Shown: positions 8,736 through 26,680 of the stretch, piece by piece
Layout: the number at the start of each line of letters is the position of its first letter
Numbering within the stretch: position 1 is the first letter of the stretch
Assembly (NCBI GenBank): GCA_036266955.1
Contig: DATAWY010000026.1
Span: 8,128 to 40,127 of the forward strand
DNA length: 32,000 bases
Origin: Rhizomicrobium sp.
Lineage (GTDB): Bacteria; Pseudomonadota; Alphaproteobacteria; Micropepsales; Micropepsaceae
Reading direction: 5' to 3'
Position numbers and translations under genes: made by a program
The notes under the pieces: generated by a model
Told to the model about the DNA's origin: nothing
The model's database searches: none
Seen by the model: only the letters and a program-made list of their open reading frames with translations

Positions 8736-8819
8736 AGATACTGTAAATGCACATAAATTTGGCGTCGCGGTTTCAACGCCCAACATTAAAACCCACAATT
8801 CGAGCCGGATTGCCCCGGT

Positions 8820-9023: not shown

Positions 9024-9110
9024 TCCATCGCCGCAGTTGGCGAAAATCTTGGTCTGGAATCTGTCCCCTAACCGTGTCAATTTGAGTTTTGACCCAAATC
9101 GGGGGGAGAT

Positions 9111-10166: not shown

Positions 10167-10291
10167 CAAACATGGAATTCGCTTGCGATGCATGGTAGGG
10201 CTAAATCGGTCCAAATTGAGTTTTTACGTTGTTTCAAACTCGTTAGAGCTAGCGGTAACACTTCGACAGGCTCTAAGCAAAAGAGGCATTT

Positions 10292-10789
10292 ATGCAAAAC
10301 ACTATTGCAATCTGCATCTTGTTTTCCATTTCATTCGTTCCCACTGAGCCGGCGTTAGCAGACTGGCAATACGCCCATTGGGGCATGACACCTTCACAGG
10401 TAGCCACAGCGTCAAGCGGCGCAGCCGCAGAAAGCGCTGGGCAACCGGGTGATCAATTAGACGGCTACGTAATCGGCGATATAGGCCGATATTCATCGGG
10501 CGAATATCATTTCAGATCGATCTACTATTTCGACAAGCGTGGACTCGCGATGATTGAGCTGACCCTGAACGGAGCGGGTTACGATGAATGCATCGCTGTT
10601 CAACTTGATTTGGAAGGGCGCTACGGAAGGCCGTATGACAGAGACGGCACTTCGGTCACTTACGGAGCCACATGGCAAGACGCGAAGGCAAACAACTTCG
10701 TATCGATTGAAACTATTGGGCGTGGCGAATCTGCTACTTGTTCGATCAGATATAGACCGTTAAAAACGAACAGCGCAAACGGATTATGA
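10292..10789 (+). CDS. Secreted hypothetical protein (island cargo)
   Basis: The N-terminus MQNTIAICILFSISFVPTEPALA-DW is signal-like. The protein shares the motif style (W)GM(T/P)..(V/F) and L...(F/Y)G.P with the C-terminal half of the preceding protein. Confidence 0.6.
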   Translation: MQNTIAICILFSISFVPTEPALADWQYAHWGMTPSQVATASSGAAAESAGQPGDQLDGYVIGDIGRYSSGEYHFRSIYYFDKRGLAMIELTLNGAGYDECIAVQLDLEGRYGRPYDRDGTSVTYGATWQDAKANNFVSIETIGRGESATCSIRYRPLKTNSANGL

Positions 10790-10823
10790 TGAAAATACCT
10801 TTTTAAGCAAAGACCATCCAATT

Positions 10824-11267
10824 TCACTCTTGTACAGAATCCAGCGCGCGTTTAATTAAGGCGCGACGACGCTGCGCGTCGATTAATTCTCCGGCTTCTT
10901 CGAATGACATCTCAGCGTAATCAATGTTTGGTTCTTGCTCTCGTTGCAGAATGAGTTCGCGCGGGACAAGCGCACCGACTAGGCGAAGGTAGGTTGCAGG
11001 ATCATCCGTGCGCAGACGAGCAATGGCGTCCGCACCATGTTCCGCAAAGTCAGCGACAATCACCGACAGGAACAATTCAGTAAGGCGGTTCCTCGCACCT
11101 TTTGGCCTTCCGCCACCGCTATTGCCGGTTAGAAAACGGCCCTTTTCGTCGCGCGCCGCAGGAGCATCCCCCTCTGCTAATCCTGCTAAGGGGGCCAACT
11201 GGTTCGCAGCTCTAGCGGGATTAGCTGACGGCCAAGGCTTTTGTTCACCCACGGCAACAGTCTCCAT
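10824..11267 (-). CDS. DUF5681-like phage/island protein
   Basis: GRFLTGNSGGGRPKGARNRLTE matches the G-R-F-x-x-G-x-S-G-N-P-x-G-R-P-K-G motif I associate with DUF5681. The start is uncertain, since the gene overlaps the upstream ORF by ~80 nt. Confidence 0.55.
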   Translation of the reverse strand: METVAVGEQKPWPSANPARAANQLAPLAGLAEGDAPAARDEKGRFLTGNSGGGRPKGARNRLTELFLSVIVADFAEHGADAIARLRTDDPATYLRLVGALVPRELILQREQEPNIDYAEMSFEEAGELIDAQRRRALIKRALDSVQE

Positions 11268-12783
11268 GCTTCTTTGCGCGGCGCACCATCAATCACCGTG
11301 CCCGGCGCCATGCGTTCGATCCAGCCGTGTTCCTCCAATATCTCGACGGCCTTACGGGCCGTCTTAGCGTCTCGCATCGCCCCTGGCCCGCGTTGGTAGA
11401 TCAGCGCCAGATAAACCAGAGGCGAAAGTTGTGCCTGCCACCACGTCAATAGACGCTGCGCTAAACGAAGTTCTGGCGTCACAGACGCACCGCCATGAAG
11501 GCGTAGCATCTCGTTTGCATAGTGCGTCGCAAGAGCGATACCCGACTGCATCGCAGTCAACGATACTTCCATCGCGTCGGGGTATCGTAAACGGTCAATA
11601 CAGCGGCTAACCGTCCTGCATGTTCAGCAAGCTTGGCCGCAAATGCACGTATTGGAACAAGAACGCCTTCGGTCGCAATTGCACCCTCGCAACTGTCGTG
11701 AAATGAAATCCATGCTCGCACCGCGTCGGAATGCAGCCGCATAGTCGGAGGGTCTAAGACATCCTCCATATCTGTTCGCGTGACCGTAGGCTTCAACAAA
11801 AGGTAACGCAGTCGATCATTGTAGCTTTCCAGTGCATCCGCCGCTCCATGCGGAGCTTCACGGAAGAACCGCGTTCCTGCCGTCGTGTCTGGTGCAACGA
11901 TCAACATTCGCGCAATCAATCCAATACCGTCAAATAGTACATCTCCCAACAGCCGTTCGGCAACTATGGGCTGCAACATAATATGGGCGCTGCAACGCCG
12001 GCCCGGCAGGAACGTCACGCCAGTACCGACGCGTCGCCGTCTGATCGCCTCACCATCCCACAAGGTATTGAACAACGCGGCGGTTCGCATTCTGCTTTCA
12101 TCATTGAAGGCTGCGCCTCCGATTAACAAGCCGCCTTCGGCCGTGAATACGCCCGCCATGGGGCGTCCTTCGGCAAGATGCAGCGTCAACGCTTCGGGCG
12201 TCGGATCAGCGATGAGCAACATGGGATGCGGCGGCGCCTTAGGCTCCGGGCCAACCGTTTCAAGAGCCGCGCAAAGACCGACCATGTCGCCTTTTTTTGT
12301 CCGTTTGGCGTGGTCACGCGCAGTCTCCCAAGCCTCCTTCGCGTTCACAAACATTTGCCGTTCACTTTGCGATTTCTGACGCCACTCACCTTCAACGCGA
12401 TAGACGGCCGCCAAAGCAATACGATCCACGCTCGATTTACGTTCGCCACTGTCCGCAACGGATATGAAGATGGCAGTAAGAGGCTTCTGCCCACCACCGG
12501 GCAACGTCACGTCCCGTTGCGCTTGAACAGCCAACGTAGCGGCGGCCAAGACAGATTGGGCAGCTATTGCAATTGGGGCTTGAGTTCGTTGGTGGATGGC
12601 GAATGTGGCGTCCCTCAAAGGTCCTAGTGCTTCCAACGGAAACTCCGGCGCGGACGATAGCGGGCGGAACAGAGGGCGCTTTTCGGGCGGCGCTCTAAGT
12701 TCAGCGGCGACAACTTGAGTAAGCTCCGTCGCATCTTTGGGAGACCAATTGGACGGGTCACAGTCCATTGCGAGCGCTCCCAT
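11186..12783 (-). pseudogene. DUF3987 (YfjI/P4-alpha helicase-like) protein, split by a frameshift near 11557-11575
   Basis: ORF 11557..12954 carries the DUF3987-like core (...LTAIFISVADSGERKSSVDRIAL...ADPTPEALTLHLAEG...) and ends ...VLTVYDTPTRWKYR*. ORF 11186..11572, in another frame, continues with MEVSLTAMQSGIALATHYANEMLRLHG...IYQRGPGAMRDAKTARKAVEILEEHGWIE, the usual C-terminus of this family. The likely real start is M at 12783 or 12768. Confidence 0.7.
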
Positions 12784-13624
12784 AACCGACTTGAACGCCA
12801 CTACGCACCGTTGCGCTCGCCTCACGCACTGGTAATCCGGCTTGCCGGCCGGCTTCGGTGAGAAGTGCGATAGCGGTTTCAATCTGAATGCTGCCATCGC
12901 ACACGATTTCTCGCGCGCGACATGCTGCCCAATGAAGCGTTGAATTTCGTTCACCTTTCGGGGCAGACACTACCCTGCGAACAAGTCCGATCAGCCGCCG
13001 TTTTACGGGTCCGGCCCTTGTATCGTTGGGTTTCATGATTTTCACTGGTATGGCCACTGTCGCGGGCTTGACCATCAACGCAACGAGCCATTGCGGCACT
13101 TCTGGCAAGTTTCGGTTGCCAATCGCCTTCGCGAGTTGTTCCAATGAGCCGTTGGAGAGCGAGTAGCGACGGCAATCCGCCATAATCGAACCCGCCGCTA
13201 TGACATAGGCGTTGTCGCGAATATCAACCGCTGAAACGATTTTTGCTTTCGTTTGGCCCATTTCAGGCCAACGCTGGAACAAGCAATGAAGGCCGTCGCG
13301 TGGCGTTGATATGCATGGAACCGAATGCGGCTCAAAGCCGTGTAGCGCGAACAAATCGCAGAGGGTCGCAACGCCGTCACTATTTCCGTGCCTATCGGCA
13401 TCTATGACAACAACACTATTATCTTGGCATGGCAGGCCGACTATAGCATTGGGCCATGTCTTCCACCAACTAATGATCTGCTCTTCGCTGGCACTTGCGC
13501 TATGCCATCCGCCACCGACGTATGGAGCCTTTGCATTTCCGCTTTCGCTATCAACTTCGCGACATGGGAAAACCTTAACGCCCCATTTTGCGTAGCCGAG
13601 CGCAACCATTCCGTTGACCGTCAT
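12758..13624 (-). CDS. Bifunctional DNA primase/polymerase (Prim-Pol, N-terminal domain family)
   Basis: ALGYAKWGVKVFPC...GGWHSASASEEQI..WW...PNAIVGLPCQDNSVVVIDADRH...TPRDGLHCLF fits the archaeo-eukaryotic primase DxD and surrounding pattern. The start overlaps the upstream stop as ATGA. Confidence 0.8.
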   Translation of the reverse strand: MTVNGMVALGYAKWGVKVFPCREVDSESGNAKAPYVGGGWHSASASEEQIISWWKTWPNAIVGLPCQDNSVVVIDADRHGNSDGVATLCDLFALHGFEPHSVPCISTPRDGLHCLFQRWPEMGQTKAKIVSAVDIRDNAYVIAAGSIMADCRRYSLSNGSLEQLAKAIGNRNLPEVPQWLVALMVKPATVAIPVKIMKPNDTRAGPVKRRLIGLVRRVVSAPKGERNSTLHWAACRAREIVCDGSIQIETAIALLTEAGRQAGLPVREASATVRSGVQVGYGSARNGL

Positions 13625-13929
13625 TTTATCCCCGATCTCTTAAGTGTGGTCGGATCGATACCGCGTGAACGAAGAAATTCGACAATGGATCGATCGGTTT
13701 TGAGCGTCGGACAGTTGGGGGCAGTGAATAACGCACGAATTCGCATTCCGACCATACGCTTGACAACTACGAGATTAACTTCGCCCAGTACTCCGGTTCC
13801 ATCATCGGCGAACGGGATTGCCCACGATGGAAAGGGTCCATCTCCTGTTGTATAGCAACGAGCGCGAAAGCGACGGAACGGATTGGCAGCGAAAAACGCC
13901 TTGTCTGAACTTAGTGATGGCTCACGCAT
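13621..13929 (-). CDS. Hypothetical protein (island replication/regulation operon)
   Basis: This is the in-frame part of ORF 13621..14070, taken from M at 13929 (MREPSLSSDKAFF...). It is sandwiched between alpA and Prim-Pol with short overlaps at both ends. I recognise no family. Confidence 0.4.
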   Translation of the reverse strand: MREPSLSSDKAFFAANPFRRFRARCYTTGDGPFPSWAIPFADDGTGVLGEVNLVVVKRMVGMRIRALFTAPNCPTLKTDRSIVEFLRSRGIDPTTLKRSGIK

Positions 13930-14137
13930 CTCGCGTGTCCGAATTGGGCCGCGCCGGCATAGGCGCTGCACGCCCTTCAAGCCACGCCACGATGACGGAT
14001 TCGGGCCAACCGACAGCCCTCTTGCCGAGTTTGATCGGCTTCGGAAATTCGCCTTGGGCGATCCCTTCATAGATCGTGCTGCGGCTCAGACCGATTCGCA
14101 ATTCAACTTCGCGACGGCGCAGAATCCTATCGGTCAT
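13922..14137 (-). CDS. alpA: AlpA-family transcriptional regulator / excisionase-like
   Basis: ILRRREVELRIGLSRSTIYEGIAQGEFPKPIKLGKRAVGWPESVIVAWLE is the typical AlpA/Phage_AlpA pattern. Confidence 0.85.
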   Translation of the reverse strand: MTDRILRRREVELRIGLSRSTIYEGIAQGEFPKPIKLGKRAVGWPESVIVAWLEGRAAPMPARPNSDTRDA

Positions 14138-14500
14138 CCGATTCTCCCAAGTGCGTAAGCGGCGATGGAAGTTTCATCGCATTTCGTGGTCGGTGGATGG
14201 CTCTTGTTAGGGCAGTTAGCCGGTATGGTGCGCATGTGCTTTCTCCTCGCGCCGCGCGAGCGGCACTGTTCTGGTTCATGTTTTGAGAAAGCCCCGCAGG
14301 TCCTAAACCAACGAAGCGCGCTGGCCTTGCCAGAGCAAACCTTGGCGAACACGTCGCCTTTTCACTACTGCTTCGGACCGGCCTAGCCTTACTCGAATCG
14401 CAATAGCGAACTTCGGTATTATCCGGCCAGCAGACATGCGGTCAAGAGAAAACTTCGCGCGGCCGAACAAACTACAGGTTGGCAGTCGAGTAGTTAGCGC

Positions 14501-15722
14501 TCAGACCCTGCCGCGCATTCTGACAACGTTTTCGGAATTCAAGCTTAGGTATTGCGCCCAAGTGTTCATCAATTTACGCCGCTTTTCAAACAAGTCCGAC
14601 CGTGCGTAAGCGGCTTCGGCCTTATTAGCGATGATATGCGCAAGCGCGAATTCGCAGACTTCGCGGGGAAAATTCGTTTGCTCACCTGCCCAATCCCGAA
14701 ACGAAGAACGAAACCCGTGGGGCACTGCTTCAACTCAATTCTCTCAGCAACTTCGACAACGTTGCATCCGATAGCGGTTTTCCCTTCGACGTGCCGGGAA
14801 ATACGTGCCCACTCTCGCACTTGAGCATTTGCGCTGTTTTCAGAATTTCAAGGCAACGTGCGGAGAGCGGAACGCGATGCGGACGTTTAGCCTTCATTCT
14901 CTTTGCGGGGATGATCCATTCCGCCTTTTCAAGATCGATTTCATTCCACGATGCACCCCGCGTCTCTCCCGAACGCGTGGCCGTCAAAATCATAAATTCG
15001 AGCGCCAGTTTCGACGCAAGCGATGCTTCACTTGCGTTGACGCGCTCAATAGCGTTGGCAACTTCGCCGTATGGCAGTGCACTATGGTGATTTACGGTAG
15101 AACGATCATGCTTCGGAAGCGCCCTAGCGATTGCATCGGCAGGATTGTCGCTTCGCCAGCCTTGAGCGACGGCCCATTTCATAACAGACCCGATACGCTG
15201 CTTTACGCGACGGGCCGTTTCGGGCTTTGAATTCCATACTTGCGACAACGCCGACAGCACGTCAGCGGTAGTCACAACGTCAATCCGCTTATGGCCGAAG
15301 TGTGGGAACACGTATTCATTCAGCGTATTGATCCACTGCTGGCCATGCTTCGGGTTGCGCCATGTGGGCAAATGCAGAGCGTGGACCTTTTCGGCTGCAT
15401 CCTTGAACGTCATAATGGAGGCGAGTTGCCTACGGGAAGCAACGGGATCGCCACCCATTCGGGCCGTTTTTCTGTTTTGAAGCGCCGTATCCCTTGCGTC
15501 GGCGAGCGACACGATATTGGCCGCTCCTAACCCCAGATCGCGACGCTTCCCGTGGACGACAAGGCGTTGAACCCATCGTTTCGCGCCCGACGGGTCAACC
15601 TTTAGGTAGAGGCCATGACCATCGCCATAGAAGCCCGCCACGCTCACGTTGCGAACCGCTGCGGCCGACAACCTCTTTTCCTTGTGTTGGCCCTGTGACT
15701 TCGTGCCCATGGTGTATCCCAC
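14501..15722 (-). pseudogene. int: P4-type tyrosine integrase, interrupted by a frameshift at ~14725-14732
   Basis: ORF 14730..15722 has a DUF4102-like N-terminus (GFYGDGHGLYLKVDPSGAKRWVQRLVVHGKRRDLGLG), a SAM-like domain, and TATRSGETRGASWNEIDL with the catalytic Arg. It ends LLRELS*. ORF 14501..14725, in a different frame, carries (V)PHGFRSSFRDWAGE...AAYARSD with the HxxR motif and catalytic Tyr. Confidence 0.85.
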
Positions 15723-15761
15723 ATTCCGCCCAACAATTTCGGCCGGAAGTTAGCGGTACAC

Positions 15762-15828
15762 TTGGGAATGCTCAAGCATAATTTTGGGAATTGTCGCGGT
15801 TTTAGCGAGGTTTTTGGGATTGCCCCGG
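15762..15828 (+). repeat. Direct repeats between the int start and attR (candidate arm-type recombinase sites)
   Basis: TTGGGAAT occurs at 15762-15769 and 15784-15791, and TTGGGATT at 15814-15821. GGATTGCCCCGG at 15817-15828 is repeated exactly at 8807-8818, just inside attL. Confidence 0.5.
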
Positions 15829-15854
15829 ACTTTGCCGGTATTGAGTGCAGCGGA

Positions 15855-15870
15855 CTCCCTGTCCGCCATT
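15855..15870 (+). repeat. attR core (direct repeat CTCCCTGTCCGCCATT)
   Basis: This is an exact copy of 8720-8735, the tRNA-Ser 3' end. Confidence 0.75.
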
Positions 15871-15925: not shown

Positions 15926-16528
15926 TCAGGCGTGCTTTGCCAGCTCGTGCTCCACATGCGCCCAGTTCACCAGGTGATCGAGGAACGTTTCCACGAAGTC
16001 CGGCCGGCGGTTCTGGAAATCCAGATAATAGGCGTGCTCCCAGACATCGCAGGTCAGCAGAGCGGCCGAGCCCAGGGCAAGCGGATTGACCGCATTGGGA
16101 GTCTTGATGACCTTGAGCTGATTGCCCTCGCGGACCAGCCAGCCCCACCCGCTGCCGAACTGGCCGACGCAGGCATTCTTGAATTCTTCCCGGAACTTGT
16201 CATAGCCGCCAAAGTTCCGCTCCAGCGCCTGGGCCACCTCCCCGTCGGGACGGCCGCCGCCGCCGGGCTTCATCGAGTTCCAGAAGAACGTGTGATTCCA
16301 GACCTGTGCCACGTTGTTGAAGATCGCGGTTTTCGAGTCATCATGGGCCGTCGCGCGGATCACATCCTCCACGGGCCTGCCCTCGAGCGGCGTGCCCTGG
16401 ACGAGCCGGTTCGCGTTGTCGACATAGGCCTTGTGATGCTTGTCATGGTGGAACTCAAGCGTCCTGGCCGACATATGCGGTTCGAGCGCATTCTTCTCAT
16501 AGGGCAGAGGCGGAAGTTCGAAAGTCAT
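15926..16528 (-). CDS. sodB: Fe-type superoxide dismutase
   Basis: The product reads MTFELPPLPYEKNALEPHMSARTLEFHHDKHHKAYVDN...FNNVAQVWNHTFFWNSM...DVWEHAYYLDFQNRRPDF. The start is chosen at 16528 with GAGGAC upstream. The N-terminal 24 aa of ORF ..16600 are discounted. Confidence 0.95.
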   Translation of the reverse strand: MTFELPPLPYEKNALEPHMSARTLEFHHDKHHKAYVDNANRLVQGTPLEGRPVEDVIRATAHDDSKTAIFNNVAQVWNHTFFWNSMKPGGGGRPDGEVAQALERNFGGYDKFREEFKNACVGQFGSGWGWLVREGNQLKVIKTPNAVNPLALGSAALLTCDVWEHAYYLDFQNRRPDFVETFLDHLVNWAHVEHELAKHA

Positions 16529-16667
16529 CTTGTCCTCGCTTCGTTTGGGGCGAAAGGGCCGCGCCTTGCATACAGGGTTTGCGGGTCCGTCGATCGACAA
16601 TTACCGGCAATGGCCGGCGCCCTCAAGCGCCACTTGCGACGTTCTCTTGCCGGCACGTTCGGAGCCG

Positions 16668-17720
16668 CTACTCGAGCGGTACACTGGCTAAACCCAGCGG
16701 GCGGTTTCCGATGCAATGATTCATGGATTCAAGCTGATGGCGCGCCATCGCTCTCAACATTGAGACCATTTCACCTTCATGCGGTTCGAGTGTCTTAAGA
16801 AGTTTGATGAATTTGAGGGCATTGGAACGCAGAATGTAGTCGAATACCTCGTCGGGATTCGTCACACCTGCTTCGCCCAGTAGCGTGCCGAATATTCCGC
16901 GCGCCAGGCGGGGAACCTGCCGGTGGCCGAGCAACAGGTACGACAGCGTCAGCGTGTTCCCGTCGATTCCAGTTTTGGGGACCCGGTGCTTTCCACGCTT
17001 GACACTCTTTTCGGTATTTCGACCTATCACGATTTCCTTGTCTTCGAGCTGCACCCTGCCTGAGAGGCTGAAGGCGGCCGGTCGCGGCTCCAGAACTCCG
17101 AAACGGCAAAAAACCGAATAAGCGTCCTCGGCGCCGTAGCGGAGCGCGATGTCCTGGCGAACGTATCCCTGGACCTGGAGGTGCATTCCCCGCTCGTATT
17201 GCAGACCGTCCGCGCTGTGGTTGGCCAGTTCGAGCAATGGCGCGATGACTGCTCCGCCGCGCCAGGGGACTTCGCGGGTTTGGAGGAAATGCGTCCAGAT
17301 CCTCGTGGCGAAATCTCCCTGCAGCAGATGACCAAGCCTGAATTCCGCAATCAGCAACTCGCGCGTTTCTGGCGGAAGTCCCTCCAATGCAGCGATAAAC
17401 GAGGTGGCTTTCGCCTGTCCACCCGCCCCCCACGAAAATGCGGTTTGGTACCGTTCAAAAAATCGCCGTTCCGTGTCAGGGACATCGGCGGACTCGCGAA
17501 TACCGATCGACCCCGCGGTGAATTCGATATCGTCGACCCGGAACAGAAGATTGCGCGACACCCGCAGAAGCACCGGTTCACGCGGGTCGACGACGGAAAG
17601 GCCGCAGCCGAATTCTCCGTTCCCCAATGCGACGTTCTGCGCCGCCCCGCCAAGCGCGCAAAACGCCTCGAGCATCTCGTTCCAGGTCCACTCCCGCTGT
17701 GGGGGCGAGTCGTGCTCCAT
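16668..17720 (-). CDS. LSMT-like SET-domain protein (putative protein lysine methyltransferase), paralogue 1
   Basis: G.GL...D......LL.V...LL in the N-terminal part, VIAPLLELANHSADG, and ...DIALRYGAEDAYSVFCRFGVLEP resemble plant RuBisCO-LSMT-type SET domains (LVPLADLINHS ... YG..SNAELALDYGF). The start M at 17720 overlaps the upstream stop as ATGA. The fold assignment is from memory and was not searched. Confidence 0.6.
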   Translation of the reverse strand: MEHDSPPQREWTWNEMLEAFCALGGAAQNVALGNGEFGCGLSVVDPREPVLLRVSRNLLFRVDDIEFTAGSIGIRESADVPDTERRFFERYQTAFSWGAGGQAKATSFIAALEGLPPETRELLIAEFRLGHLLQGDFATRIWTHFLQTREVPWRGGAVIAPLLELANHSADGLQYERGMHLQVQGYVRQDIALRYGAEDAYSVFCRFGVLEPRPAAFSLSGRVQLEDKEIVIGRNTEKSVKRGKHRVPKTGIDGNTLTLSYLLLGHRQVPRLARGIFGTLLGEAGVTNPDEVFDYILRSNALKFIKLLKTLEPHEGEMVSMLRAMARHQLESMNHCIGNRPLGLASVPLE

Positions 17721-18775
17721 CAGAACTCCCGCGTTCCGACGCATTGGGCCAGCGCTTCGAGGTGGAGATGGGCCATCGCTCTCAGCCTCACAACCATCTC
17801 GCCGCGCAGCAGTTCAAGTGCCTCGAGCAGCTGGAGAAATTTTGCCCTGTTAAAATGCAGCACCTGATCGAATGCGTCCATGGCACCTGCCGCGCCCGCT
17901 TCCCGCATCAAGCCATAGAAAATTCCGCGCGACGCGCGCGGGGAATTCGCATTGCCGACCATCAGATGCGACACGAAAACTTCGCCAGCTTCGGATGTCA
18001 TGACCGGCAACACGAAACCGGCACGGTTCGTATTGTGCATTATATTTCGGGTGATCGTAAGGTTGAAGGCTCCGACCTTTATCTTCATCGGCAGGCTGAA
18101 CGCATGGGGCCGCGCGGTGGCAAAACCGTATTTGTTGAAAACGCCGAGGCAATCGTGAAATCCATAACTCAGGTGGAGTTCGCCCTGCGCTTCGCCTGCT
18201 ATCTGCACGCCCCCTTGCGGACCGGTATCCACACGCATGCCGTTGCTGCCGCCGCCCATGAGGTCAAGCAATGGCACGAGAAGGCTTTCGTCATCCCATC
18301 GCACCGATCTGCTTCTGAGAAAGTGCTTGCGGATTCTTTCCCTGCGGTCACCCTCCATGAAAAGGCTCATGCCGAATTCTGCGACCAGCAGGGCGCGCAA
18401 ATCGGGGGCGAGAGAGTCGAACAAGTCGATGAGCTCGGCACTCTGAGCGTGGCCTGCGTCGCCCCAGGAAAAAGAGCTCTGGTATCGTTCAAAAAAGCTC
18501 CGCTCGCGCGATCCCGTTTCGGCATGCTCGCCAATGCGGATGCGGTCGCCCTCGAACCCGATATCCCGGAGCCGGAACAAAAGATTATCCGGCACATGCA
18601 CCAGCAATGGCTTCGCCGGATCCTTCGGAAACAATCCTTGCCCGGACAATGACGGTAGCAACACGACGTTTTCCGCAATACCGCCCAAATTGCGGAATTC
18701 GTCCAATACGCCCTCCCATGCCCCCAAACGTGGCGACAATGCCGTATTCGACGTGTCGTCGGCGCTACTGGCCAC
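17720..18775 (-). CDS. LSMT-like SET-domain protein, paralogue 2 (NH motif absent)
   Basis: It is collinear with paralogue 1 along its length, for example FFERYQSSFSWG versus FFERYQTAFSWG and LLVAEF versus LLIAEF. It has LLVPLLDLMGGGSNG where paralogue 1 has ...ELANHSADG, and retains ...HLSYGFHDCLGVFNKYGF. Confidence 0.6.
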   Translation of the reverse strand: MASSADDTSNTALSPRLGAWEGVLDEFRNLGGIAENVVLLPSLSGQGLFPKDPAKPLLVHVPDNLLFRLRDIGFEGDRIRIGEHAETGSRERSFFERYQSSFSWGDAGHAQSAELIDLFDSLAPDLRALLVAEFGMSLFMEGDRRERIRKHFLRSRSVRWDDESLLVPLLDLMGGGSNGMRVDTGPQGGVQIAGEAQGELHLSYGFHDCLGVFNKYGFATARPHAFSLPMKIKVGAFNLTITRNIMHNTNRAGFVLPVMTSEAGEVFVSHLMVGNANSPRASRGIFYGLMREAGAAGAMDAFDQVLHFNRAKFLQLLEALELLRGEMVVRLRAMAHLHLEALAQCVGTREF

Positions 18776-18916: not shown

Positions 18917-19573
18917 ATGATGCGCTCGATACGCAAAGCTGTCTTGGTGGCGATTTGCGCGGTGGGGATAGCCGCAGCGGCGGCCCGCCCCGGAGGGGGG
19001 CTGGCCGCAGCCGCCCCTGCCGGCGATGCGGTTTACGTACTGAAAGGCTACAGGTTCAGCGGTAAGCTTGGGCCTGCGAACACGACCGGGATGGTGGCAA
19101 AGCTCAAGCACCAACCCGGCGGCCGGGTCACCAAAGCCGACATCATCGCCGACGCAGCCATATTCGCCGGGGAACTCAAGGCCCGGCATATGGGGGGGCG
19201 CTACTTCGTCTTCACCACCGAAAATCACGGGCAGATCTGGGTCACGTTCGGACTTTTGGATATGCGTTACCCGGCGGCGACGGCGTGGGCGTCACGCCGC
19301 CTCGAATCCCAGCATTTTGAGGGCCTGTCCAACATTCCCACGAGCGCTCTGTCTGCCGCCACACGCCTGAAGCCCGGCGATACGCTATCGCCCGAAAATA
19401 TCGATGCGGCGCGAAGGGCGATAATGGCCCTGTTCGCGAATTCCCCGAATGGAACCGCATTAACGGTAAAGATCAAAATACAGGTCAGGCCGAATAACGA
19501 AGCCGCGCTCACCTGGATCATCGCCGACAAACGGAAACCAGCGATGGGGACCGGGAGCGGCAAAGCCGATTAG
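18917..19573 (+). CDS. Secreted protein with two POTRA-like repeats, no barrel
   Basis: The N-terminus MMRSIRKAVLVAICAVGIAAAAA is signal-like. VYVLKGYRFSGK... and HFEGLSNIPTSALSAATRLKPGDTLSPENIDAARRAIMALF...LTVKIKIQVRPNNEAALTWIIAD look like POTRA units. The ORF track starts at a GTG at 18890. Confidence 0.55.
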   Translation: MMRSIRKAVLVAICAVGIAAAAARPGGGLAAAAPAGDAVYVLKGYRFSGKLGPANTTGMVAKLKHQPGGRVTKADIIADAAIFAGELKARHMGGRYFVFTTENHGQIWVTFGLLDMRYPAATAWASRRLESQHFEGLSNIPTSALSAATRLKPGDTLSPENIDAARRAIMALFANSPNGTALTVKIKIQVRPNNEAALTWIIADKRKPAMGTGSGKAD

Positions 19574-19728: not shown

Positions 19729-20274
19729 ATGGACAACCTGACCAAGACTTTGCTTACGGGTGCAGCGATCTCCGCAATTGCGGCTGTTCCCGCCATGGCC
19801 GGCGCTCCGAAAATTCAACCGACAGCGGCTCCGATCAAATATCACGGCATACAGTACCAGAAGACAGCTGCTGGACACATGACCCCGAAAGGCACGACCT
19901 ATACCTACAATGAAGGCACGTATGTCTACAGCTATAGCTATACGTTCTGGTACAAAAATACGTACAATCTGGCGGCTTGGACGTGGACCAGCCGCACCGG
20001 CACCACCAGCAGCTCGAAGTGCAAGACCGTCCCGGGTCAGAAAGTAAAATTCACGACAGATGCGGACGCAAAGGTCAAGAAATACACTACCGTGATTTCG
20101 AATGCCAGCAACGCGGGCTTCTGCAAGGGCGGCACGCTCAGCTACTATGGACCGGCGTACGAGTACAAGAAGAAGGGTGCGGACGACGACAACACCTTCA
20201 CAATGACGGACACGATCAAGTCCAACAAGAACAAGTACGAGCTCATCGTGGGCTACGACATCAACGTTACCTGA
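19729..20274 (+). CDS. Secreted Tyr/Thr-rich small protein, unknown function
   Basis: The ATG at 19729 follows GGGGAAG. The signal peptide is MDNLTKTLLTGAAISAIAAVPAMA-GA. The mature part is rich in Y, T and K (TYTYNEGTYVYSYSYTFWYKNTY...YYGPAYEYKKKGADDD) and has 2 Cys. The gene is AT-richer than its neighbours and is followed by a clean terminator. Confidence 0.7.
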   Translation: MDNLTKTLLTGAAISAIAAVPAMAGAPKIQPTAAPIKYHGIQYQKTAAGHMTPKGTTYTYNEGTYVYSYSYTFWYKNTYNLAAWTWTSRTGTTSSSKCKTVPGQKVKFTTDADAKVKKYTTVISNASNAGFCKGGTLSYYGPAYEYKKKGADDDNTFTMTDTIKSNKNKYELIVGYDINVT

Positions 20275-20443: not shown

Positions 20444-22456
20444 ATGCGACCACCTAGGGCGAAGTCCGTGCCGACAGCGCTTTTCGCGAACCAGGGTTTG
20501 CGGCGACCGCAGAGTGGCTTGCCGGAATGTCCTCAACCCCTTCCGACAACCGTGCCGCCGGTTGTTCCTGCGTCTCGCGCATCCGGGCATGGATCGCCAC
20601 CGGTCGCGTCGAAGGCCCCGGCGTCGCCGACCCATCTTTATGAAGTCGGCCTGACGGCTGCAGCGATGTCCTATCACACCCTTGCTATCGACTCCCTGCG
20701 CGAATGCACCGCCCTGGCGCCAAATCACGGACCCGCCTTGCGCAAGCTCGCCCAGCTGCTGCACCTCGCAGGGGAAGATGCGCAGGCGGACGAGGCCGAA
20801 GCAGCGGCGCAGCGTGCCGCAGGTGTCGAGTGGGTGAACGGCTCAGACGTACGCGCATCGGCAGACCTGGAAAAAGCCGAGCGAAAACGGATCGAGTCTC
20901 TCAAAAGAAAGCCGGAGGCGGAGGCTACCAACACTCTTCGCGAACATCTCATCGCGCACCCCCTGGACGCAGTGGCGATACGATGGCTGGCGCGCCTCGA
21001 GATTCGGGGCAACGATCGGGTTACAGCCCGCACCTTGTTCGAACGTGCTCTCGATCTCTGCCCGGGGTACATCGGCGCGCGCGAGGACCTGGCTCAATTG
21101 CTGATCGAAGAGCGACAGTATGCAGCCCTTGCCGAAACCACCCGGCTGCTGTCAGAGCAACCGGGCAGTTCCCGCTATCTGCTGCTCCACGCGCATGCCT
21201 TGATCGACAGCGGCAAGCCGGCCGCTGCAATCGATGTCCTCGTCCGCGCGCTCCGGGAGGATCCAAACGATGCAAGATCCTGGCGCATTTACGCAGCCGC
21301 GCTGCTTACCGCGGGCCGCGGCGAGGAGAGCGTGCAGGCCTATCGGAAGTGCCTCGATCTCGATCCGGCGGCGGGCGAGGCCTGGTGGGGATTGTCCGAA
21401 ATGAAGGACAAGGTCCTCACCGAAGACGATGTTGAAGAGATGCGGGCACATCTCGACGACGACACAGTCGAGCCGGAGCGCCGCATGCATATGTTATACG
21501 CGCTGGGCCAAACCCTGGAACGAGCAGGAGAGTTTGCCAAAAGTTTTGAGGCCTATGAAAAGGCCGCCCGCGAATTTTGGGTCGGCCGCGAGAAAAAGCC
21601 GAGGGAAGAGGAGACGTTCGACTCTCACGACACCGTGCAGCGGACAAAAACGGCATTCAGCAGCAACAATTTCGCAACACGGCTGGTGCAGGCACCTGCG
21701 GGGAATGATCAGGACACACCGATTTTCGTGGTCGGCATGCCGCGTGCGGGCTCCACGCTTGTCGAACAAATCCTTACCAGCCACAGCCGCATCGAAGCGA
21801 TCGGCGAACGGCCGCTGGTCGGCGAAATCCAGCGCGAATTGGCATTCAGCCGGCTGCTCGTGGAGCGGGAGGCCTATCCCGATTGCGTCCTGGAGCTCAC
21901 CGCGGAGCGGTTCGCCGAACTCGGCGCCCGGGTTATGGCGCGCTCGCGCGACTATCGTACCACCGCCCGGCCCTATTTCGTGGACAAGCGCCCGTGGAAC
22001 TGGCTGGCTGTGGGATTGATCCATCTTATGCTGCCCCAGGCGAAAATCATCGATATACGACGCGAACCCATGGCGGCCTGCTTTGCGATGTACAAGCAGC
22101 TGTTGCCGCGCTACTGCACGTTTTCCTACGATCTCAAAGAAGTGGGCCGCTATTACAACAGGTACGTGAAGCTGATGGAACACTGGGAAACGGTTCTTCC
22201 CGGCCGTGTACATTTCATTCAATATGAAAATCTTGTACAGGACACGGAATTCGAAATTCGCCGCATGCTCGCCCATTGCGGGTTGCCGTTCGAAGAAGGC
22301 TGCCTGCGTTTTTGGGAAACCGAGCGATCCATTGTCACGCCGAGCGCCGAGCAGGTACGCCGTCCCATCTACCGTGGCGCTCTGGAGCAATGGCGCAATT
22401 TCGAGCCATGGCTCGATCCCCTGAAGGAAGCGCTCGGCGAACCCGTCGAGCTGTGA
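20444..22456 (+). CDS. TPR-repeat sulfotransferase-family protein (module 1)
   Basis: GGAGGA lies 7 nt upstream of the ATG. The N-terminal half has TPR-like helices. The C-terminal half has the PAPS 5'-phosphosulfate-binding loop PIFVVGMPRAGSTLVEQIL and then ...IDIRREPMAACFAMYKQ...TPSAEQVRRPIY. Confidence 0.85.
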   Translation: MRPPRAKSVPTALFANQGLRRPQSGLPECPQPLPTTVPPVVPASRASGHGSPPVASKAPASPTHLYEVGLTAAAMSYHTLAIDSLRECTALAPNHGPALRKLAQLLHLAGEDAQADEAEAAAQRAAGVEWVNGSDVRASADLEKAERKRIESLKRKPEAEATNTLREHLIAHPLDAVAIRWLARLEIRGNDRVTARTLFERALDLCPGYIGAREDLAQLLIEERQYAALAETTRLLSEQPGSSRYLLLHAHALIDSGKPAAAIDVLVRALREDPNDARSWRIYAAALLTAGRGEESVQAYRKCLDLDPAAGEAWWGLSEMKDKVLTEDDVEEMRAHLDDDTVEPERRMHMLYALGQTLERAGEFAKSFEAYEKAAREFWVGREKKPREEETFDSHDTVQRTKTAFSSNNFATRLVQAPAGNDQDTPIFVVGMPRAGSTLVEQILTSHSRIEAIGERPLVGEIQRELAFSRLLVEREAYPDCVLELTAERFAELGARVMARSRDYRTTARPYFVDKRPWNWLAVGLIHLMLPQAKIIDIRREPMAACFAMYKQLLPRYCTFSYDLKEVGRYYNRYVKLMEHWETVLPGRVHFIQYENLVQDTEFEIRRMLAHCGLPFEEGCLRFWETERSIVTPSAEQVRRPIYRGALEQWRNFEPWLDPLKEALGEPVEL

Positions 22457-22463: not shown

Positions 22464-25400
22464 ATGACAGGAGTTTCCGAACTAACCCATCCGTCGGTGC
22501 CCGACAGCACGACGCCGTTGAGTGCGTCGCCCATCCTGGATTACACGCGCGCCCTTAACCTGGCAGCAACGGAGCATTACGAATCCGCCATCAAGGTGCT
22601 GCGCGATGTCACCGCACGCGCGCCCGGCCACGGGCCCGCCTGGCAAAAGCTCTCGGAGTTGCTGTATCTCGCGGGCAAAGACGAAGAATCGAGCTCCGCA
22701 AACGCCCGCGCGGCCGGCCTTACCGCCGAATTTGATCCCCTCACAGACGATCGTGATTCGGCAAAAATCGAGGCTGATGAACAGGTACTGCGCGAACACC
22801 TCTCCGCCTTGGCTACGGCGGGGGAGCAGCAGAACAAGCTGCGCAGTCACTTGCGCGAGCATCCGGCCGACGCGGTGGCCCTGCGCGCCCTCGGGCGCCT
22901 CGAACGGGACCGCGGCCATGTTCCAACGGCGCGCAACCTGTTCGAGCGCGCGCTGGAGCTGGCCACTTATTACGTGGGCGCACGGGAAGACCTCGTGCTT
23001 GTACTGCGTGTGCTGCAGGACGACGCGCACGCGCTCGCCGAGACGCGGCTGCTGATTGCCCAGTCGCCTGAGAGCGTCAACTATCGTGCGTTACTCGCTG
23101 CCGGACTTTTCGAAGTCGGGGATATGGAAGCCGCCATTCCCGTCCTCGAACAACTGATCCGGGAGGATTCCTCCCGCGTGCGTATCCGCGGCCTGTATGC
23201 GCAAACCTTGTATTATGCCGGCCGGCGGCACGACAGTGCTCGGGAATGCCGCGCGCTGCTCGAGATGCGCCCGGGAATGGGCGCGGCCTACTCTCGCCTT
23301 GCGGAAATGCGCGACGACTTTCTCGGACCGGCTGATGTTACTGCCATGCGCGAACATCTGCGCGAGCCCGGGGAGGACAAACCGAACTCCGCACTCATCC
23401 AGTTTGCGCTCGGCCTGGTGCTGGAGCAGACGGGAGATTTTTCCGGGAGCTTCGCCGCCTATGAGGCCGGTACGGCGCTGGCGCGGGAGATCGCGGCAGA
23501 CAAGAGCGGCCCCTACGATGTCGCGACGGACGTCGACAAGATGCGCAGGCGTTGCGCGGTGTTTACCCGGAAAACTTTGAGCAAATGCGCCGTGCCGCAG
23601 CCCGCCGCGGCCGCCATAACTCCCATTTTCATCGTCGGAATGCCGCGTGCCGGGTCAACACTCGTGGAACAGATCCTCGGCAGCCACAGCCTCGTCGAGG
23701 CTACCCTGGAATTGCCCGTGCTGAACAAAATCGCCGGCGATCTCTCGCGCAGCCGTGCCCTGGTCACGCCTGACGCCTATCCCGAATGTATGACAAGCCT
23801 GAGCGAGGAGCGGCTGGCAGAACTTGGCGCGCGTTTCATCCGGGACGCTGCTGCCTATCGCAAGACTGACCGCCCATATTTTGTGGACAAATGTCCGTGG
23901 AATTGGTTCGAGGCGGGCTTGATACGGATGATACTGCCGCAGGCAAGAATTGTCGATATCCGTCGCGAACCGATGGCTGCCTGTTTTGGCATGTACAAGC
24001 AGAACCTGGCCGATGCCGGCGCGTTTTCCAACGATTTCAACGATCTCGCTACATATTACACGGAATATGTGCGTACAATGGACCACTACGACACGGCAAT
24101 GCCGGGTCATATCTATTGCCTCTCATACGAGCGGCTGGTGGAGGACACGGAAAACCAGATCCGCCGGCTTCTCGATTATTGCGGCCTTCCGTTCGAAGAA
24201 AATTGTCTGCGCTTCTGGGAAACCCAAAGGCCTGTCTCGACGCCGAGCGCCGAGCAGGTGCGCCGTCCCATTTTTCGTGACGCCGTTCAGCAATGGCGCA
24301 GGTTCGAGCCCTGGCTCGGGCCACTGAAGGAAGCCCTGAGGAAGGCAGAGACAGCCGCAGCTGCGGCGCCCCAGCCGGCTGGGTACGATTTCGCCCTGAC
24401 GTTTGCGGCGATGAGCGTTTGCGATCCGGCAATGAAGAAACTGCGGGCCGTGACAAGGCGGGAACCCACGCATGCGGGCGCCTGGAGCAAGCTTGCGGAA
24501 TTGCTGCGGCTCTCCGGAAAGGACAAGGCCGCGGACGATGCTGCCGCGGCCGCAGCGCGCCATGCCGGCGAGGCGTCAAATTGGCAGAAAACCCGGGATC
24601 TGCGCACGGCGCCGCAACTCGAGGCCGCCAAGGAGGCATTCGAGACGGAACTGAAGGGCAAGGAGCGCGGCAAACAGATGAACTGGCTCCGCAATCATCT
24701 GGCGGAAAATCCTACCGACACGGCTGCCATTTTCCTGCTTTCCGATCTTGAGTTCGAGGACCGTGACGAGTTGACATCGCTCGCACTTCTGGAGCGCGCG
24801 CTGGAACTCGCGCCTGCATATCATGCCGCCCGATACCAGTTCGCGCGGCGGCTCGCGGACGGGCAGTTTGTTCGCGCGCTGGAACACACCTCGTTCCTGG
24901 TGCGTCGGGTGCCCCAAAACCCGATCTACCGCGAGCTTCATGCCGAACAGTTGAGACAAATTGGCCGTTTCTCGGAGGCCATAGCGCTGACCGATGAGCT
25001 CTTGCGGGAATTCCCGCGCCACCCGCGGTTCCGGTTCCGGTACGGGCTGCTGCTGCGTTCGCTCGGCCGGCGTGACGAGAGTGCCCGCGCCTTCCGCGCC
25101 TGTCTTCAGATCGCCCCGGCTATGGGCGAGGCTTATGCCGGCCTCGCCGATCTAAAGGACAATTTACTCACCGACGATGATGTGACGGCCATTCGCGGCC
25201 ACATGGCGGATCCGAGCCTTCCCCCTCACGACCGCATGAACATGTATTACGCGCTCGGCTCTGCGCTGGAACGGAGGGGCGATTTTTCGGCAAGCTTCAA
25301 GGCCTATCAGGCCGCCGCCCGACTGTTTCGCGGCGCGTTTCTGGGAATGGGCGAAGCCCACAACGAAGAGGAGACGGTTGGGCGCATTCGCGGGCTCAAG

Positions 25401-26201
25401 AACTTCTATACACAAAGGTTTCTATCTCCATCACCCGCCGCTCCCACAAATCGGGATGTCACGCCGATTTTTGTCGTGGGCATGCCGCGTGCGGGTTCTA
25501 CGCTCGTTGAACACATTCTCGGCAGTCACAGCCAGGTCGAGGCGACAAGCGAACTGCCGCTGATCGGTCAGATCGTGCGCGATATTGCGATCAGCCGCCG
25601 GTTGGTGATGGGAACTGCGTATCCGGAGCGTTTGTCGGACATGACACCCGATGAGCTGGCGGCGCTCGGAAATCTCTACATCGAACGCGCCCGCGACTTT
25701 CGGAAAACCGACTGGCCTTACTTCGTCGACAAGCGACCCTGGAACTGGATTGACGCAGGCCTGATCCATCTGATTCTGCCACATTCGAAGATCATCGACA
25801 TCCGCCGCGAACCGATGGCCGCGTGCTTTGCAAATTTCAAGCAGAAATTGCCGAAAGACGCCGAGTTTTCCAACGACCTTGCCGAACTTGGCCACTACTA
25901 TAATTTGTATGTTTCATTGATGGACCACTGGAAGGAGGTCATGCCGGGCCGTATTCATTTTGTGCAGTACGAACGCCTGGTCCAGAACACGGAAAACGAG
26001 ATCCGCCGCATGCTGGAATATTGCGGGCTGCCCTTCGAAGAGGGCTGCTTGCGCTTCTGGGAGTCGGATCGCGCGGTGACGACTCCGAGCGCCGAGCAAG
26101 TGCGGCGCCCGATCTATCTGGACGCGGTGGAGCAATGGCGCAATTTCGAACCCTGGCTTGGTCCGCTCAAAGCGGCACTATCCGAACCCGCCCGTGCGTA
26201 G
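22464..26201 (+). CDS. Tandem-fused double TPR-sulfotransferase protein (modules 2 and 3)
   Basis: This is a 1245-aa ORF. Residues 1-625 and 641-1245 are each collinear with the upstream 670-aa protein. Each half has its own PRAGSTLVE P-loop (PIFIVGMPRAGSTLVEQIL and PIFVVGMPRAGSTLVEHIL) and its own TPSAEQVRRPI motif. Confidence 0.85.
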   Translation: MTGVSELTHPSVPDSTTPLSASPILDYTRALNLAATEHYESAIKVLRDVTARAPGHGPAWQKLSELLYLAGKDEESSSANARAAGLTAEFDPLTDDRDSAKIEADEQVLREHLSALATAGEQQNKLRSHLREHPADAVALRALGRLERDRGHVPTARNLFERALELATYYVGAREDLVLVLRVLQDDAHALAETRLLIAQSPESVNYRALLAAGLFEVGDMEAAIPVLEQLIREDSSRVRIRGLYAQTLYYAGRRHDSARECRALLEMRPGMGAAYSRLAEMRDDFLGPADVTAMREHLREPGEDKPNSALIQFALGLVLEQTGDFSGSFAAYEAGTALAREIAADKSGPYDVATDVDKMRRRCAVFTRKTLSKCAVPQPAAAAITPIFIVGMPRAGSTLVEQILGSHSLVEATLELPVLNKIAGDLSRSRALVTPDAYPECMTSLSEERLAELGARFIRDAAAYRKTDRPYFVDKCPWNWFEAGLIRMILPQARIVDIRREPMAACFGMYKQNLADAGAFSNDFNDLATYYTEYVRTMDHYDTAMPGHIYCLSYERLVEDTENQIRRLLDYCGLPFEENCLRFWETQRPVSTPSAEQVRRPIFRDAVQQWRRFEPWLGPLKEALRKAETAAAAAPQPAGYDFALTFAAMSVCDPAMKKLRAVTRREPTHAGAWSKLAELLRLSGKDKAADDAAAAAARHAGEASNWQKTRDLRTAPQLEAAKEAFETELKGKERGKQMNWLRNHLAENPTDTAAIFLLSDLEFEDRDELTSLALLERALELAPAYHAARYQFARRLADGQFVRALEHTSFLVRRVPQNPIYRELHAEQLRQIGRFSEAIALTDELLREFPRHPRFRFRYGLLLRSLGRRDESARAFRACLQIAPAMGEAYAGLADLKDNLLTDDDVTAIRGHMADPSLPPHDRMNMYYALGSALERRGDFSASFKAYQAAARLFRGAFLGMGEAHNEEETVGRIRGLKNFYTQRFLSPSPAAPTNRDVTPIFVVGMPRAGSTLVEHILGSHSQVEATSELPLIGQIVRDIAISRRLVMGTAYPERLSDMTPDELAALGNLYIERARDFRKTDWPYFVDKRPWNWIDAGLIHLILPHSKIIDIRREPMAACFANFKQKLPKDAEFSNDLAELGHYYNLYVSLMDHWKEVMPGRIHFVQYERLVQNTENEIRRMLEYCGLPFEEGCLRFWESDRAVTTPSAEQVRRPIYLDAVEQWRNFEPWLGPLKAALSEPARA

Positions 26202-26321: not shown

Positions 26322-26349
26322 TTGACCCTTACCTTACATTTGCTATGAT
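26322..26349 (+). promoter_or_regulatory. Candidate sigma70-type promoter of the riboswitch-btuB transcript
   Basis: TTGACC (26322-26327), a 16-nt spacer, then TATGAT (26344-26349), immediately upstream of the riboswitch. Confidence 0.5.
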
Positions 26350-26350
26350 C

Positions 26351-26522
26351 GCGCAACGCGCAAGGTTCCCGAAAGGGATTGAAAAGGGAACGCGGTTGTG
26401 ATGCCGCGGCTGCCCCCGCAACTGTGACCGGCGAGCGACCATCGGATACGCCACTGGGGCTTCGGCCCTGGGAAGGTGGATGGAAGCGGAGACCCGGGAG
26501 CCAGGAGACCTGCCTCGCGCCG
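26351..26522 (+). promoter_or_regulatory. Cobalamin (B12) riboswitch
   Basis: Three conserved core blocks are present. They are AAAAGGGAACGCGGTTGTGATGCCGCGGCTGCCCCCGCAACTGTGACCGG, GCCACTGGGGCTTCGGCCCTGGGAAGG, and the B12 box GAGCCAGGAGACCTGCC (26498-26514). The element sits in the 5' leader of a TonB-dependent receptor gene. Confidence 0.9.
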
Positions 26523-26680
26523 TCGTCCTGTTTCCGGCCGGGGTGTGCCGGGGGCTGCGGGGGAAACCGTCGCGACGACAAGGTTGGAGTCGTCGTCGCG
26601 GGGTCCGGTATGAAAGTTTCTCGTTCTCATCGCCGTGCGCTTCCGCATGCCGGCTTCTGGATTCGAACCAGGAGATCACC

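Follow-up and report, generated by a model that had tools for sequence, protein, structure and literature searches.

Large SET-fold proteins of the LSMT/SETD3/SETD6 class have, to our knowledge, previously been considered essentially eukaryotic, and the characterized bacterial SET proteins are small, carry SET domains that Pfam recognizes and include several secreted effectors that methylate host histones. Pea LSMT (PDB 1MLV, 1OZV) is built from an N-terminal helix, a GxG loop, a large helical insert, an Arg...Pro-x-x-Asp/Glu-x-x-Asn-His segment, a catalytic Tyr, an aromatic-Gly-Phe motif and a C-terminal lobe. In the solved structure of human SETD3, the actin His73 methyltransferase, the S-adenosylmethionine (AdoMet) pocket is formed by a single chain, as it is in LSMT and SETD6 by the authors' comparison, and the SET, iSET and C-terminal domains jointly make the substrate groove (PMC6400499). 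SETD3 Asn278 contacts the ribose and amine of S-adenosylhomocysteine (AdoHcy), and the N278A substitution severely impairs kcat; the main chain of His279 contacts the adenine, onto which Phe327 stacks; Arg254 contacts the carboxylate; and Tyr313 stacks onto the target residue, the Y313F substitution cutting kcat about 36-fold (PMC6400499). Here we describe a window of 32,000 nucleotides (nt) from the bacterium Rhizomicrobium sp. (GenBank assembly GCA_036266955.1, contig DATAWY010000026.1, positions 8,128 to 40,127) that encodes, on its minus strand, two adjacent genes, A and B, whose products have the layout of pea LSMT in common. The pair falls in a derived clade of a bacterial family in which the cofactor and catalytic residues are relaxed, and it may act as a heteromeric, largely pseudo-enzymatic module associated with sulfotransferases.

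Gene A (18775..17720, minus strand) is an open reading frame (ORF) of 351 amino acids (aa) with a GTG start, and gene B (17720..16668, minus strand) is an ORF of 350 aa from the ATG at 17720, with a second in-frame ATG at 17744 as an alternative start. In a BLASTP alignment of 334 aa with 2 gap positions, the two products are collinear throughout and share 38% identity (E = 6e-77). This similarity is far above chance, and on sequence the two are paralogues, which bears out the pair of collinear proteins of about 350 aa described in an earlier note on this window. On the coding strand the junction reads ...GGGAG-TTC-TGATG-GAG. In the sequence TGATG (17718..17722, minus strand), the stop codon of A and the start codon of B have one base in common. 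A GGGAG Shine-Dalgarno sequence for B (17726..17730, minus strand) lies inside A near its 3′ end, with 5 nt between it and the start codon of B; both elements were read from the sequence. The earlier note had the coordinates of the overlap right and its motif, given as ATGA, wrong; the translational coupling that it proposed is supported. Neither the interval between B and the downstream superoxide dismutase gene sodB nor the region upstream of A yielded a convincing terminator or promoter. Public annotation appears to under-call both genes: in the NCBI record of this metagenome-assembled genome (MAG), B is represented by its C-terminal 229 aa alone, labeled a hypothetical protein (P0001, locus tag VHX61_05170), and A was seen in public data only as a 328-aa call in Logan assemblies (P0027).

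Sequence comparison with described families did not reveal the fold of these proteins. Scans of A and B against Pfam and NCBIfam gave no family even at E ≤ 1, so that neither SET (PF00856) nor Rubis-subs-bind (PF09273), the families named in the earlier note for an LSMT-type protein, matched either of them. Sequence searches of the PDB with A, B and the family profile returned no SET protein, the sole match being a spurious one to a nuclease (E = 0.1). AlphaFold2 (AF2) models had a mean predicted local distance difference test score (pLDDT) of 91.9 and a predicted template modeling score (pTM) of 0.87 for B (40-sequence alignment) and a pLDDT of 90.1 and pTM of 0.85 for A (24-sequence alignment). 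When these models were compared with the PDB by Foldseek, 22 matches for B and 30 for A were obtained at E ≤ 1e-3, all of them to SETD3, SETD6, pea LSMT or plastid PAP7. The top 22 matches of B and the top 36 of A were restricted to these four proteins, and SMYD, the next class, appeared only at E ≥ 1e-2. The best structural matches were SETD3 (3smt, E = 5.5e-6 with B) and SETD6 (3qxy, E = 6.2e-6), and pea LSMT matched at E = 3e-5 and 7e-5; the alignments span about 430 to 480 columns and may cover part of the C-lobe.

Profile comparison gave the same answer. Reference sequences of SETD3, LSMT and SETD6, checked residue by residue against PDB 3SMT, 2H21/1MLV and 3QXY, were aligned, and hhalign compared them with a 33-sequence alignment of the canonical subfamily defined below (probability 93%, E = 3.4e-7, 171 columns, all motifs in register). 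The corresponding comparison with a mixed A/B alignment was weak (E = 0.044). The main motifs share one register in both alignments; the equivalence of R149 is taken from the significant one and is a few positions off in the weak one. A GxG AdoMet loop is present in both proteins (G38-C-G40-L in B, G45-Q-G47-L in A), aligned to E-G-L-G-L of LSMT, and its two Gly residues are conserved family-wide at 82% and 90%. The model of B has a large helical insert (iSET) with helices at 82-95, 101-113, 117-127, 130-133 and 137-149, that of A being alike, and a C-lobe of beta strands (215-266) and three helices (272-333) that is shorter than the C-lobe of LSMT. Because the AF2/Foldseek matches and the hhalign comparison agree, we consider the fold assignment correct for both proteins: by their models, A and B are large SET-fold proteins of the LSMT/SETD3/SETD6 class and not of the small bacterial SET type, as the earlier note had supposed.

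The pairing of A with B is not peculiar to this window. The A-then-B order, with stop and start codons overlapping or abutting, was found at eight distinct loci (the window, L001, L004, L007, L008, L009, L029 and L030; L005 and L006 repeat the proteins of L004). Six of the junctions were read from the DNA: the window, L001 and L007 have TGATG, L008 and L009 have ATGA, and in L004 a TAG stop abuts a GTG start (TAG-GTG). For L029 and L030, the gene calls have one coordinate in common at the junction. Natural two-module A-B fusions occur in L010 (697 aa) and P0043 (695 aa); these are 62% identical to each other and are therefore not an assembly artefact. L029 holds a 696-aa gene besides two pairs. 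Clusters of four to six SET-like modules, each with a two-module fusion gene and further pairs, lie at 7842-12061 of L010 and 961-7685 of L029. The conserved stop/start overlap and the natural fusions lead us to conclude that A and B likely act jointly. They also support the weaker option put forward in the earlier note, that of an enzyme with a pseudo-enzyme partner or some other heteromer, which is plausible.

To interpret the active sites, we used the hhalign register, in which the AdoHcy contacts R254, N278, H279, Y313 and F327 of SETD3 fall at family positions 149, 167, 168, 195 and 209 (numbering of B). The carboxylate-binding Arg is R149 in B and R222 in LSMT; the segment P161...E164-L-A-N167-H168 of B, which holds the (R/E)xxNH motif of SET domains, corresponds to P236...D239-L-I-N242-H243 of LSMT; the catalytic Tyr is Y195 in B, Y204 in A and Y287 in LSMT; and F207-G208-V209 of B aligns with Y300-G301-F302 of LSMT and S325-G326-F327 of SETD3. 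The peptide motifs quoted in the earlier note are all present, P161-LLELANHS-169 and R206-F-G-V209 in B and L172-MGGGS-177 and K215-Y-G-F218 in A. B keeps G38-x-G40, Arg149, Pro161, Glu164, Asn167-His168, Tyr195, Asp199 and Gly208, and it has Ser42, His180 and Val209 at positions where the canonical family has Phe, Gly and Phe. A keeps G45-x-G47-L-F49, Arg156, Tyr204 and Y216-G-F218, and thus the equivalents of the three residues missing in B (Phe49, Gly and Phe218), and it carries Gly174-Gly175 at the position of Asn-His. Judged from these residues, A cannot bind AdoMet in the canonical way. B, in which Asn-His, the catalytic Tyr and the carboxylate-binding Arg are kept, may have weak methyltransferase activity in this genome.

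These assignments change the meaning of the reciprocal loss of signature residues that the earlier note had read from the two sequences. It is true that Asn-His is kept in one copy and lost in the other, and that the copies carry different defects. The Tyr of the DYGF motif, however, which had been taken as catalytic and as lost from B, is LSMT Y300; the equivalent residue is Ser325 in active SETD3, and this position is occupied by Tyr, Phe and Trp in about equal shares across the family. In the profile alignment the catalytic Tyr sits 12 to 13 residues upstream of the Y300 position, and neither copy lacks it (Y195 within LRYG of B, Y204 within LSYG of A). What B truly lacks within RFGV is the adenine-stacking Phe (SETD3 F327, LSMT F302), which is replaced by Val209. 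The defects are thus the absence of Asn-His from A and of Phe42, Gly180 and Phe209 from B.

Could the two copies nevertheless have lost different halves of one signature, such that only the heteromer methylates? In the window the losses do differ in this sense, A lacking Asn-His and keeping Phe49, Gly and Phe218, and B showing the opposite pattern. However, the Tyr counted as lost from B is not the catalytic one, which both copies keep, and since the SET pocket lies within one chain (SETD3, and by comparison LSMT and SETD6; PMC6400499), a composite active site is not expected. Nor is complementary loss a rule of the pair: among seven A/B pairs no consistent complementarity was found, and partners often lack the same residues. 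In five pairs (L001, L004, L007, L008 and L009) neither partner has Asn-His plus Tyr, and the residues of both partners combined still do not supply Asn-His; one partner in L004 has Asp-His. We regard shared catalysis by complementary halves as hardly tenable.

The history of these residues becomes clearer in the family as a whole. A profile search of 1.84 billion cluster representatives returned 538 relatives at E ≤ 1e-3, of which 221 were found at E ≤ 1e-30. The family therefore comprises at least 538 clusters at 50% identity, a lower bound, and word-index searches added further members. None of the homologues from the word-index searches carried a precomputed Pfam domain, and every named one was a hypothetical protein. 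The hosts are mostly soil Alphaproteobacteria (Rhizomicrobium, Caulobacteraceae and other alphaproteobacterial MAGs), together with a few Eremiobacterota. We aligned 191 near-full-length sequences to the family hidden Markov model and built a neighbor-joining tree, nearly all branches of which carry Asn-His and Tyr. The exception is one derived clade of 68 sequences that includes all A-type and B-type genes; it consists of an A-type subclade (20 sequences, window A among them), a B-type subclade (30 sequences), fused genes and a few others. Asn-His is present in 112 of 118 sequences outside this clade and in 12 of 68 inside it; Asn-His plus Tyr in 109/118 versus 8/68; and Asn-His plus Tyr plus Phe209 in 101/118 versus 4/68. 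Taken singly, the catalytic Tyr is kept by 113/118 canonical sequences and 31/68 clade members, and the adenine-stacking Phe by 107/118 and 12/68 (in the window, A has F218, and V209 replaces the Phe in B). Only eight columns of the 33-sequence canonical alignment are invariant, and they include those of Arg, Asn, His and Tyr.

This relaxation is confined to the signature. Only six columns are conserved at 85% or more in the canonical sequences and below 60% in the clade, namely, 42, 167, 168, 180, 195 and 209 (canonical conservation of Phe209, 91%; Phe42, 87%; Gly180, 86%). The clade is nonetheless less diverse overall, with a mean column entropy of 1.84 bits versus 2.44 bits for the canonical sequences. 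Twelve columns are conserved only in the clade; one is the start Met, and the eleven at which constraint was gained (R120, F127, G135, R140, L146, G172, L219, R242, G275, L280 and A326) fall in the helices of the inserted region and in the C-lobe. The residues that replace Asn and His are varied (R, K, G, D, A, H or E at position 167; R, Y, G, F, P, D or E at position 168) and therefore reflect many independent events and not a single inherited change. Canonical members, in which the full AdoMet and catalytic signature is kept, are presumably protein methyltransferases. The A/B clade, by contrast, appears to have arisen by tandem duplication, and in it selection on the cofactor and catalytic signature residues was lost while the rest of the protein became more conserved than in the parent family. 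Because only 8 of the 68 clade members keep Asn-His plus Tyr, and in five pairs neither partner does, canonical methyl transfer is very unlikely to be the conserved function of the pair.

No common neighbor was found among canonical members, which occur solo or in tandem in unrelated contexts. Tandem canonical copies are present in L015 and L017 and presumably in L027. L017 has three tandem copies, all confirmed canonical, and L027 (5973-8988) has three of 341, 329 and 333 aa, whose junctions overlap or nearly do so, next to a weak match to a TylF-like methyltransferase; the middle copy of L027 came from the search with the canonical profile. In two longer proteins, P0114 (1172 aa) and P0131 (1035 aa), the SET-like domain forms the C-terminal part of a protein with tetratricopeptide repeats (TPR) and a GT41 (O-GlcNAc-transferase-like) domain; P0114 keeps Asn-His and Tyr, and in P0131 Asp replaces the Tyr.

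Two readings that retain methylation have to be weighed against this record. According to the first, B is an active AdoMet-dependent protein Lys/His methyltransferase, A is its non-catalytic regulatory or substrate-presenting subunit, and methylation is the purpose of the pair in this genome. The residues kept by B (GxG, Arg149, Glu164, Asn167-His168, Tyr195 and Asp199) and the Gly-Gly of A at the Asn-His position are what such a division of labor would predict, and coupled translation and natural fusions suit a stable two-subunit unit. Yet B lacks the adenine-stacking Phe (Val209), Phe42 and Gly180, and Asn-His plus Tyr is kept by only 3 of the 30 B-type proteins, window B being one of them. 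Since the combination is so rarely kept in B-type proteins and is absent from both partners in the five pairs named above, methylation would not be the conserved function of the pair, and we consider an active B with an inactive A rather unlikely as the explanation of the pair here. The second reading takes A and B for independent methyltransferases with unusual pockets and different substrates, left side by side by a tandem duplication, so that their adjacency is historical and not functional. Canonical copies do stand in double and triple tandem elsewhere in the family, and Arg149, Asp199 and the GxG loop are still conserved in the clade. However, the replacement of Asn-His by Arg/Lys, Gly, Tyr or Phe and of the catalytic Tyr by Arg, His or Phe is hard to square with AdoMet chemistry, and the conserved stop/start overlap and the two fusions favor joint function. 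Independent enzymes are in our judgment improbable.

The genomic neighborhood gives the pair a different context. Each of the eight loci has, divergent from the pair, one or two genes for small signal-peptide proteins and, after them, sulfotransferases with TPR; the divergent block of secreted proteins and sulfotransferases noticed earlier in this window is thus real, and its association with the pair is conserved. In the window the first small gene, small1 (18917..19573, plus strand), is divergent from A and encodes a protein of about 218 aa that has a signal peptide and, over one stretch, a weak resemblance to POTRA (Pfam POTRA, E = 5.5e-5); homologues were detected in only two other pair loci, L007 and L008. 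The second, small2 (19729..20274, plus strand), encodes a Thr/Lys/Tyr-rich protein of about 181 aa with a signal peptide, two conserved Cys residues and a YGPxY motif, and it had no match in Pfam, NCBIfam or the PDB. It is the most constant small neighbor: by phmmer, homologues adjoin the pair in L001, L004, L007 (two copies), L008 and L009, and in L029 and L030 unannotated small genes (208-262 aa) stand at the place of small2, assigned there by position and not by homology. ST1 (20444..22456, plus strand; 670-aa ORF) combines TPR families with a Sulfotransfer_3 domain (PF13469, E = 6.7e-42) and has orthologues at every pair locus. ST2 (22464..26201, plus strand; 1245 aa) has TPR and two sulfotransferase domains (PF13469, E = 3.3e-82 in two stretches), with full-length orthologues in L001, L004 and L008. 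Four SET-like modules lie among four TPR-sulfotransferases in L010, one sulfotransferase lies at the edge of the cluster in L029, and a canonical solo member, L019, also adjoins three sulfotransferases. From sequence, the recurring theme would seem to be TPR-bearing modifying enzymes, that is, sulfotransferases and TPR-GT41 fusions.

Given the conserved order, the residue changes and this linkage, our preferred reading is that A and B constitute a heteromeric, largely pseudo-enzymatic SET-fold module that works with the sulfotransferases, in which B may retain activity; we hold it with confidence and doubt in about equal measure. In this model, A and B would form a heteromer that has largely or wholly abandoned methyl transfer. 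The retained surface of the SET, iSET and C-lobe regions would bind a protein partner, making the pair an adaptor module of a sulfotransferase pathway. The heteromer would act together with the TPR-sulfotransferases, and the small2 protein would be a plausible client, either a substrate or a partner.

Several observations weigh against this model. Window B keeps Asn167-His168-Tyr195-Arg149, and the term pseudo-enzyme may not fit it. Arg149, Glu164, Asp199, Gly208 and the GxG loop are still conserved in the pair clade, and a ligand could still bind. The clade definitions depend on a neighbor-joining tree without support values. A signal peptide is found on small2, whereas A, B and the sulfotransferases show none. 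Finally, the only named similarity of the sulfotransferase is a weak match to the Nod-factor sulfotransferase NoeE, and its substrate could therefore be a carbohydrate instead of a protein. The residual conservation of the pocket also allows a bolder proposal. Arg or Lys occupies positions 167/168 in 35 of 68 clade members and in 0 of 118 sequences outside the clade, and Arg149, Glu164 and Asp199 are kept alongside; the former AdoMet pocket might have been rebuilt as a cationic site for an anionic sulfur ligand, be it the sulfate donor 3′-phosphoadenosine 5′-phosphosulfate (PAPS), its by-product 3′-phosphoadenosine 5′-phosphate (PAP) or a sulfated substrate residue. The SET heterodimer would then be the cofactor-handling or sulfo-mark-reading subunit of a protein-sulfation machine that also includes the TPR-sulfotransferases and small2. 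We consider this rebuilding a long shot.

The gene downstream of the pair, sodB (15926-16600, minus strand, as B), encodes an Fe/Mn superoxide dismutase. The gap of 67 nt reported in the earlier note is the distance to the earliest TTG that could serve as a start (16600); the Pfam superoxide dismutase domains begin at the ATG at 16528, the likely start, from which the gap is 139 nt. In plants, an LSMT-like SET subunit (PAP7) and Fe-superoxide dismutase subunits (PAP4/PAP9) occur together in the plastid RNA polymerase. The association with sodB, which had been treated as a feature of the arrangement, is not conserved: sodB follows the pair in this window only, and other genes lie downstream in L001, L004, L029 and L030. 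We rejected sodB as a functional partner, as its adjacency recurs in no other locus and looks coincidental. It separates the A/B pair from an element integrated into tRNA-Ser and stands just beyond the right-hand repeat of that element. The integrated element (about 7.1 kb, 8631-15870) is marked by a 16-nt direct repeat, CTCCCTGTCCGCCATT, with one exact copy in the 3′ end of tRNA-Ser(GGA) (8710-8725) and the other at 15855-15870. It carries a tyrosine integrase gene (14730-15722, minus strand) that matches positions 10-117 of a 172-position catalytic-domain model and may be truncated, as well as genes for a PrimPol (12758-13624) and a DUF3987 protein (11557-12954). Further along, at 3601-6830 on the minus strand, are two adjacent glycosyltransferase genes of the PMT_2 (dolichyl-phosphate-mannose-type) family. 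In L001 the same two PMT_2 genes are found a few genes past the A/B pair, and synteny in the window therefore appears to have been broken by sodB and the integrated element.

On the other side of the sulfotransferase genes, a cobalamin riboswitch (26346-26531; Rfam RF00174, 119.7 bits) lies directly upstream of a TonB-dependent receptor gene (26480-28564), overlapping the start of its longest ORF. Because of the position of this riboswitch, the receptor is probably a BtuB-like B12 transporter in a unit separate from the sulfotransferase genes. Adjoining the receptor is a two-component arrangement of a flavin reductase gene (28841-29344, minus strand) and, divergent from it, a gene for a tryptophan-halogenase-family flavoprotein (29559-31229; Pfam, E = 3.3e-173); a neighborhood of this reductase/halogenase/TonB-receptor type is mentioned in PMC2938197. 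The receptor, the flavin reductase and the halogenase were considered as parts of the module and rejected, since the riboswitch opens a separate unit at 26346.

Taken together, these results suggest that A and B belong to an apparently new bacterial lineage within the LSMT class, one that contains a derived subclade of paired, apparently pseudo-enzymatic proteins. A deep alphaproteobacterial branch bears on the origin of the LSMT/SETD3/SETD6 class. The subclade would also offer a clean natural case of an enzyme family turning into pseudo-enzymes, with six cofactor or catalytic columns relaxed and constraint gained elsewhere, and this relaxation goes together with tandem duplication, translational coupling, fusion of the genes and their recruitment to a sulfotransferase cluster. 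The whole points to an uncharacterized bacterial protein-modification cassette in which TPR-sulfotransferases are joined by a SET-fold pair and by a small exported protein rich in Thr, Lys and Tyr. That no bacterial system with such an arrangement has been described, as the earlier note held, is supported by a literature search, which found no account of the family or of a cassette joining SET and sulfotransferase genes.

Compared with pea LSMT, A and B are bacterial, only 11-14% identical in sequence and shorter by about 90 aa, and their C-lobe is smaller, consisting of a beta-rich stretch and three helices; they form a tandem pair, and each has lost part of the cofactor signature (Asn-His in A, Phe in B). 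Human SETD3 and SETD6, their best structural matches, are single-chain active enzymes with known substrates, whereas 56 of 68 A/B-clade members lack Asn-His and the genes occur as coupled or fused pairs. Plastid PAP7, also among the top structural matches, offers a precedent: there, an LSMT-class SET fold is a stable component within a larger complex, and no methylation substrate has yet been identified for it (PMC11561172). Unlike A and B, PAP7 keeps the LSMT active-site residues, and it is eukaryotic and stands in an unrelated context. Chlamydia NUE and the other characterized bacterial SET proteins (reviewed in PMC3980110) are likewise SET-fold proteins of bacteria; the A/B family differs from them in its length of about 340 aa, its LSMT-class fold, its invisibility to Pfam, its lack of a signal sequence, its multiple copies in free-living soil Alphaproteobacteria and its partial loss of catalytic residues. 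The closest parallels to the neighborhood itself lie in sulfation. One of them is the RaxST-RaxX type of bacterial sulfation cassette. In such cassettes, and in the sulfotransferase-containing modification neighborhoods of Iyer et al. 2010 (PMC2938197), as at the locus described here, a cytoplasmic sulfotransferase stands beside a small exported, presumed substrate and further modifying enzymes. Whereas no SET-fold component has been described in those systems, here the sulfotransferases carry TPR, small2 is their putative sulfation substrate, and a translationally coupled SET-fold pair accompanies them.

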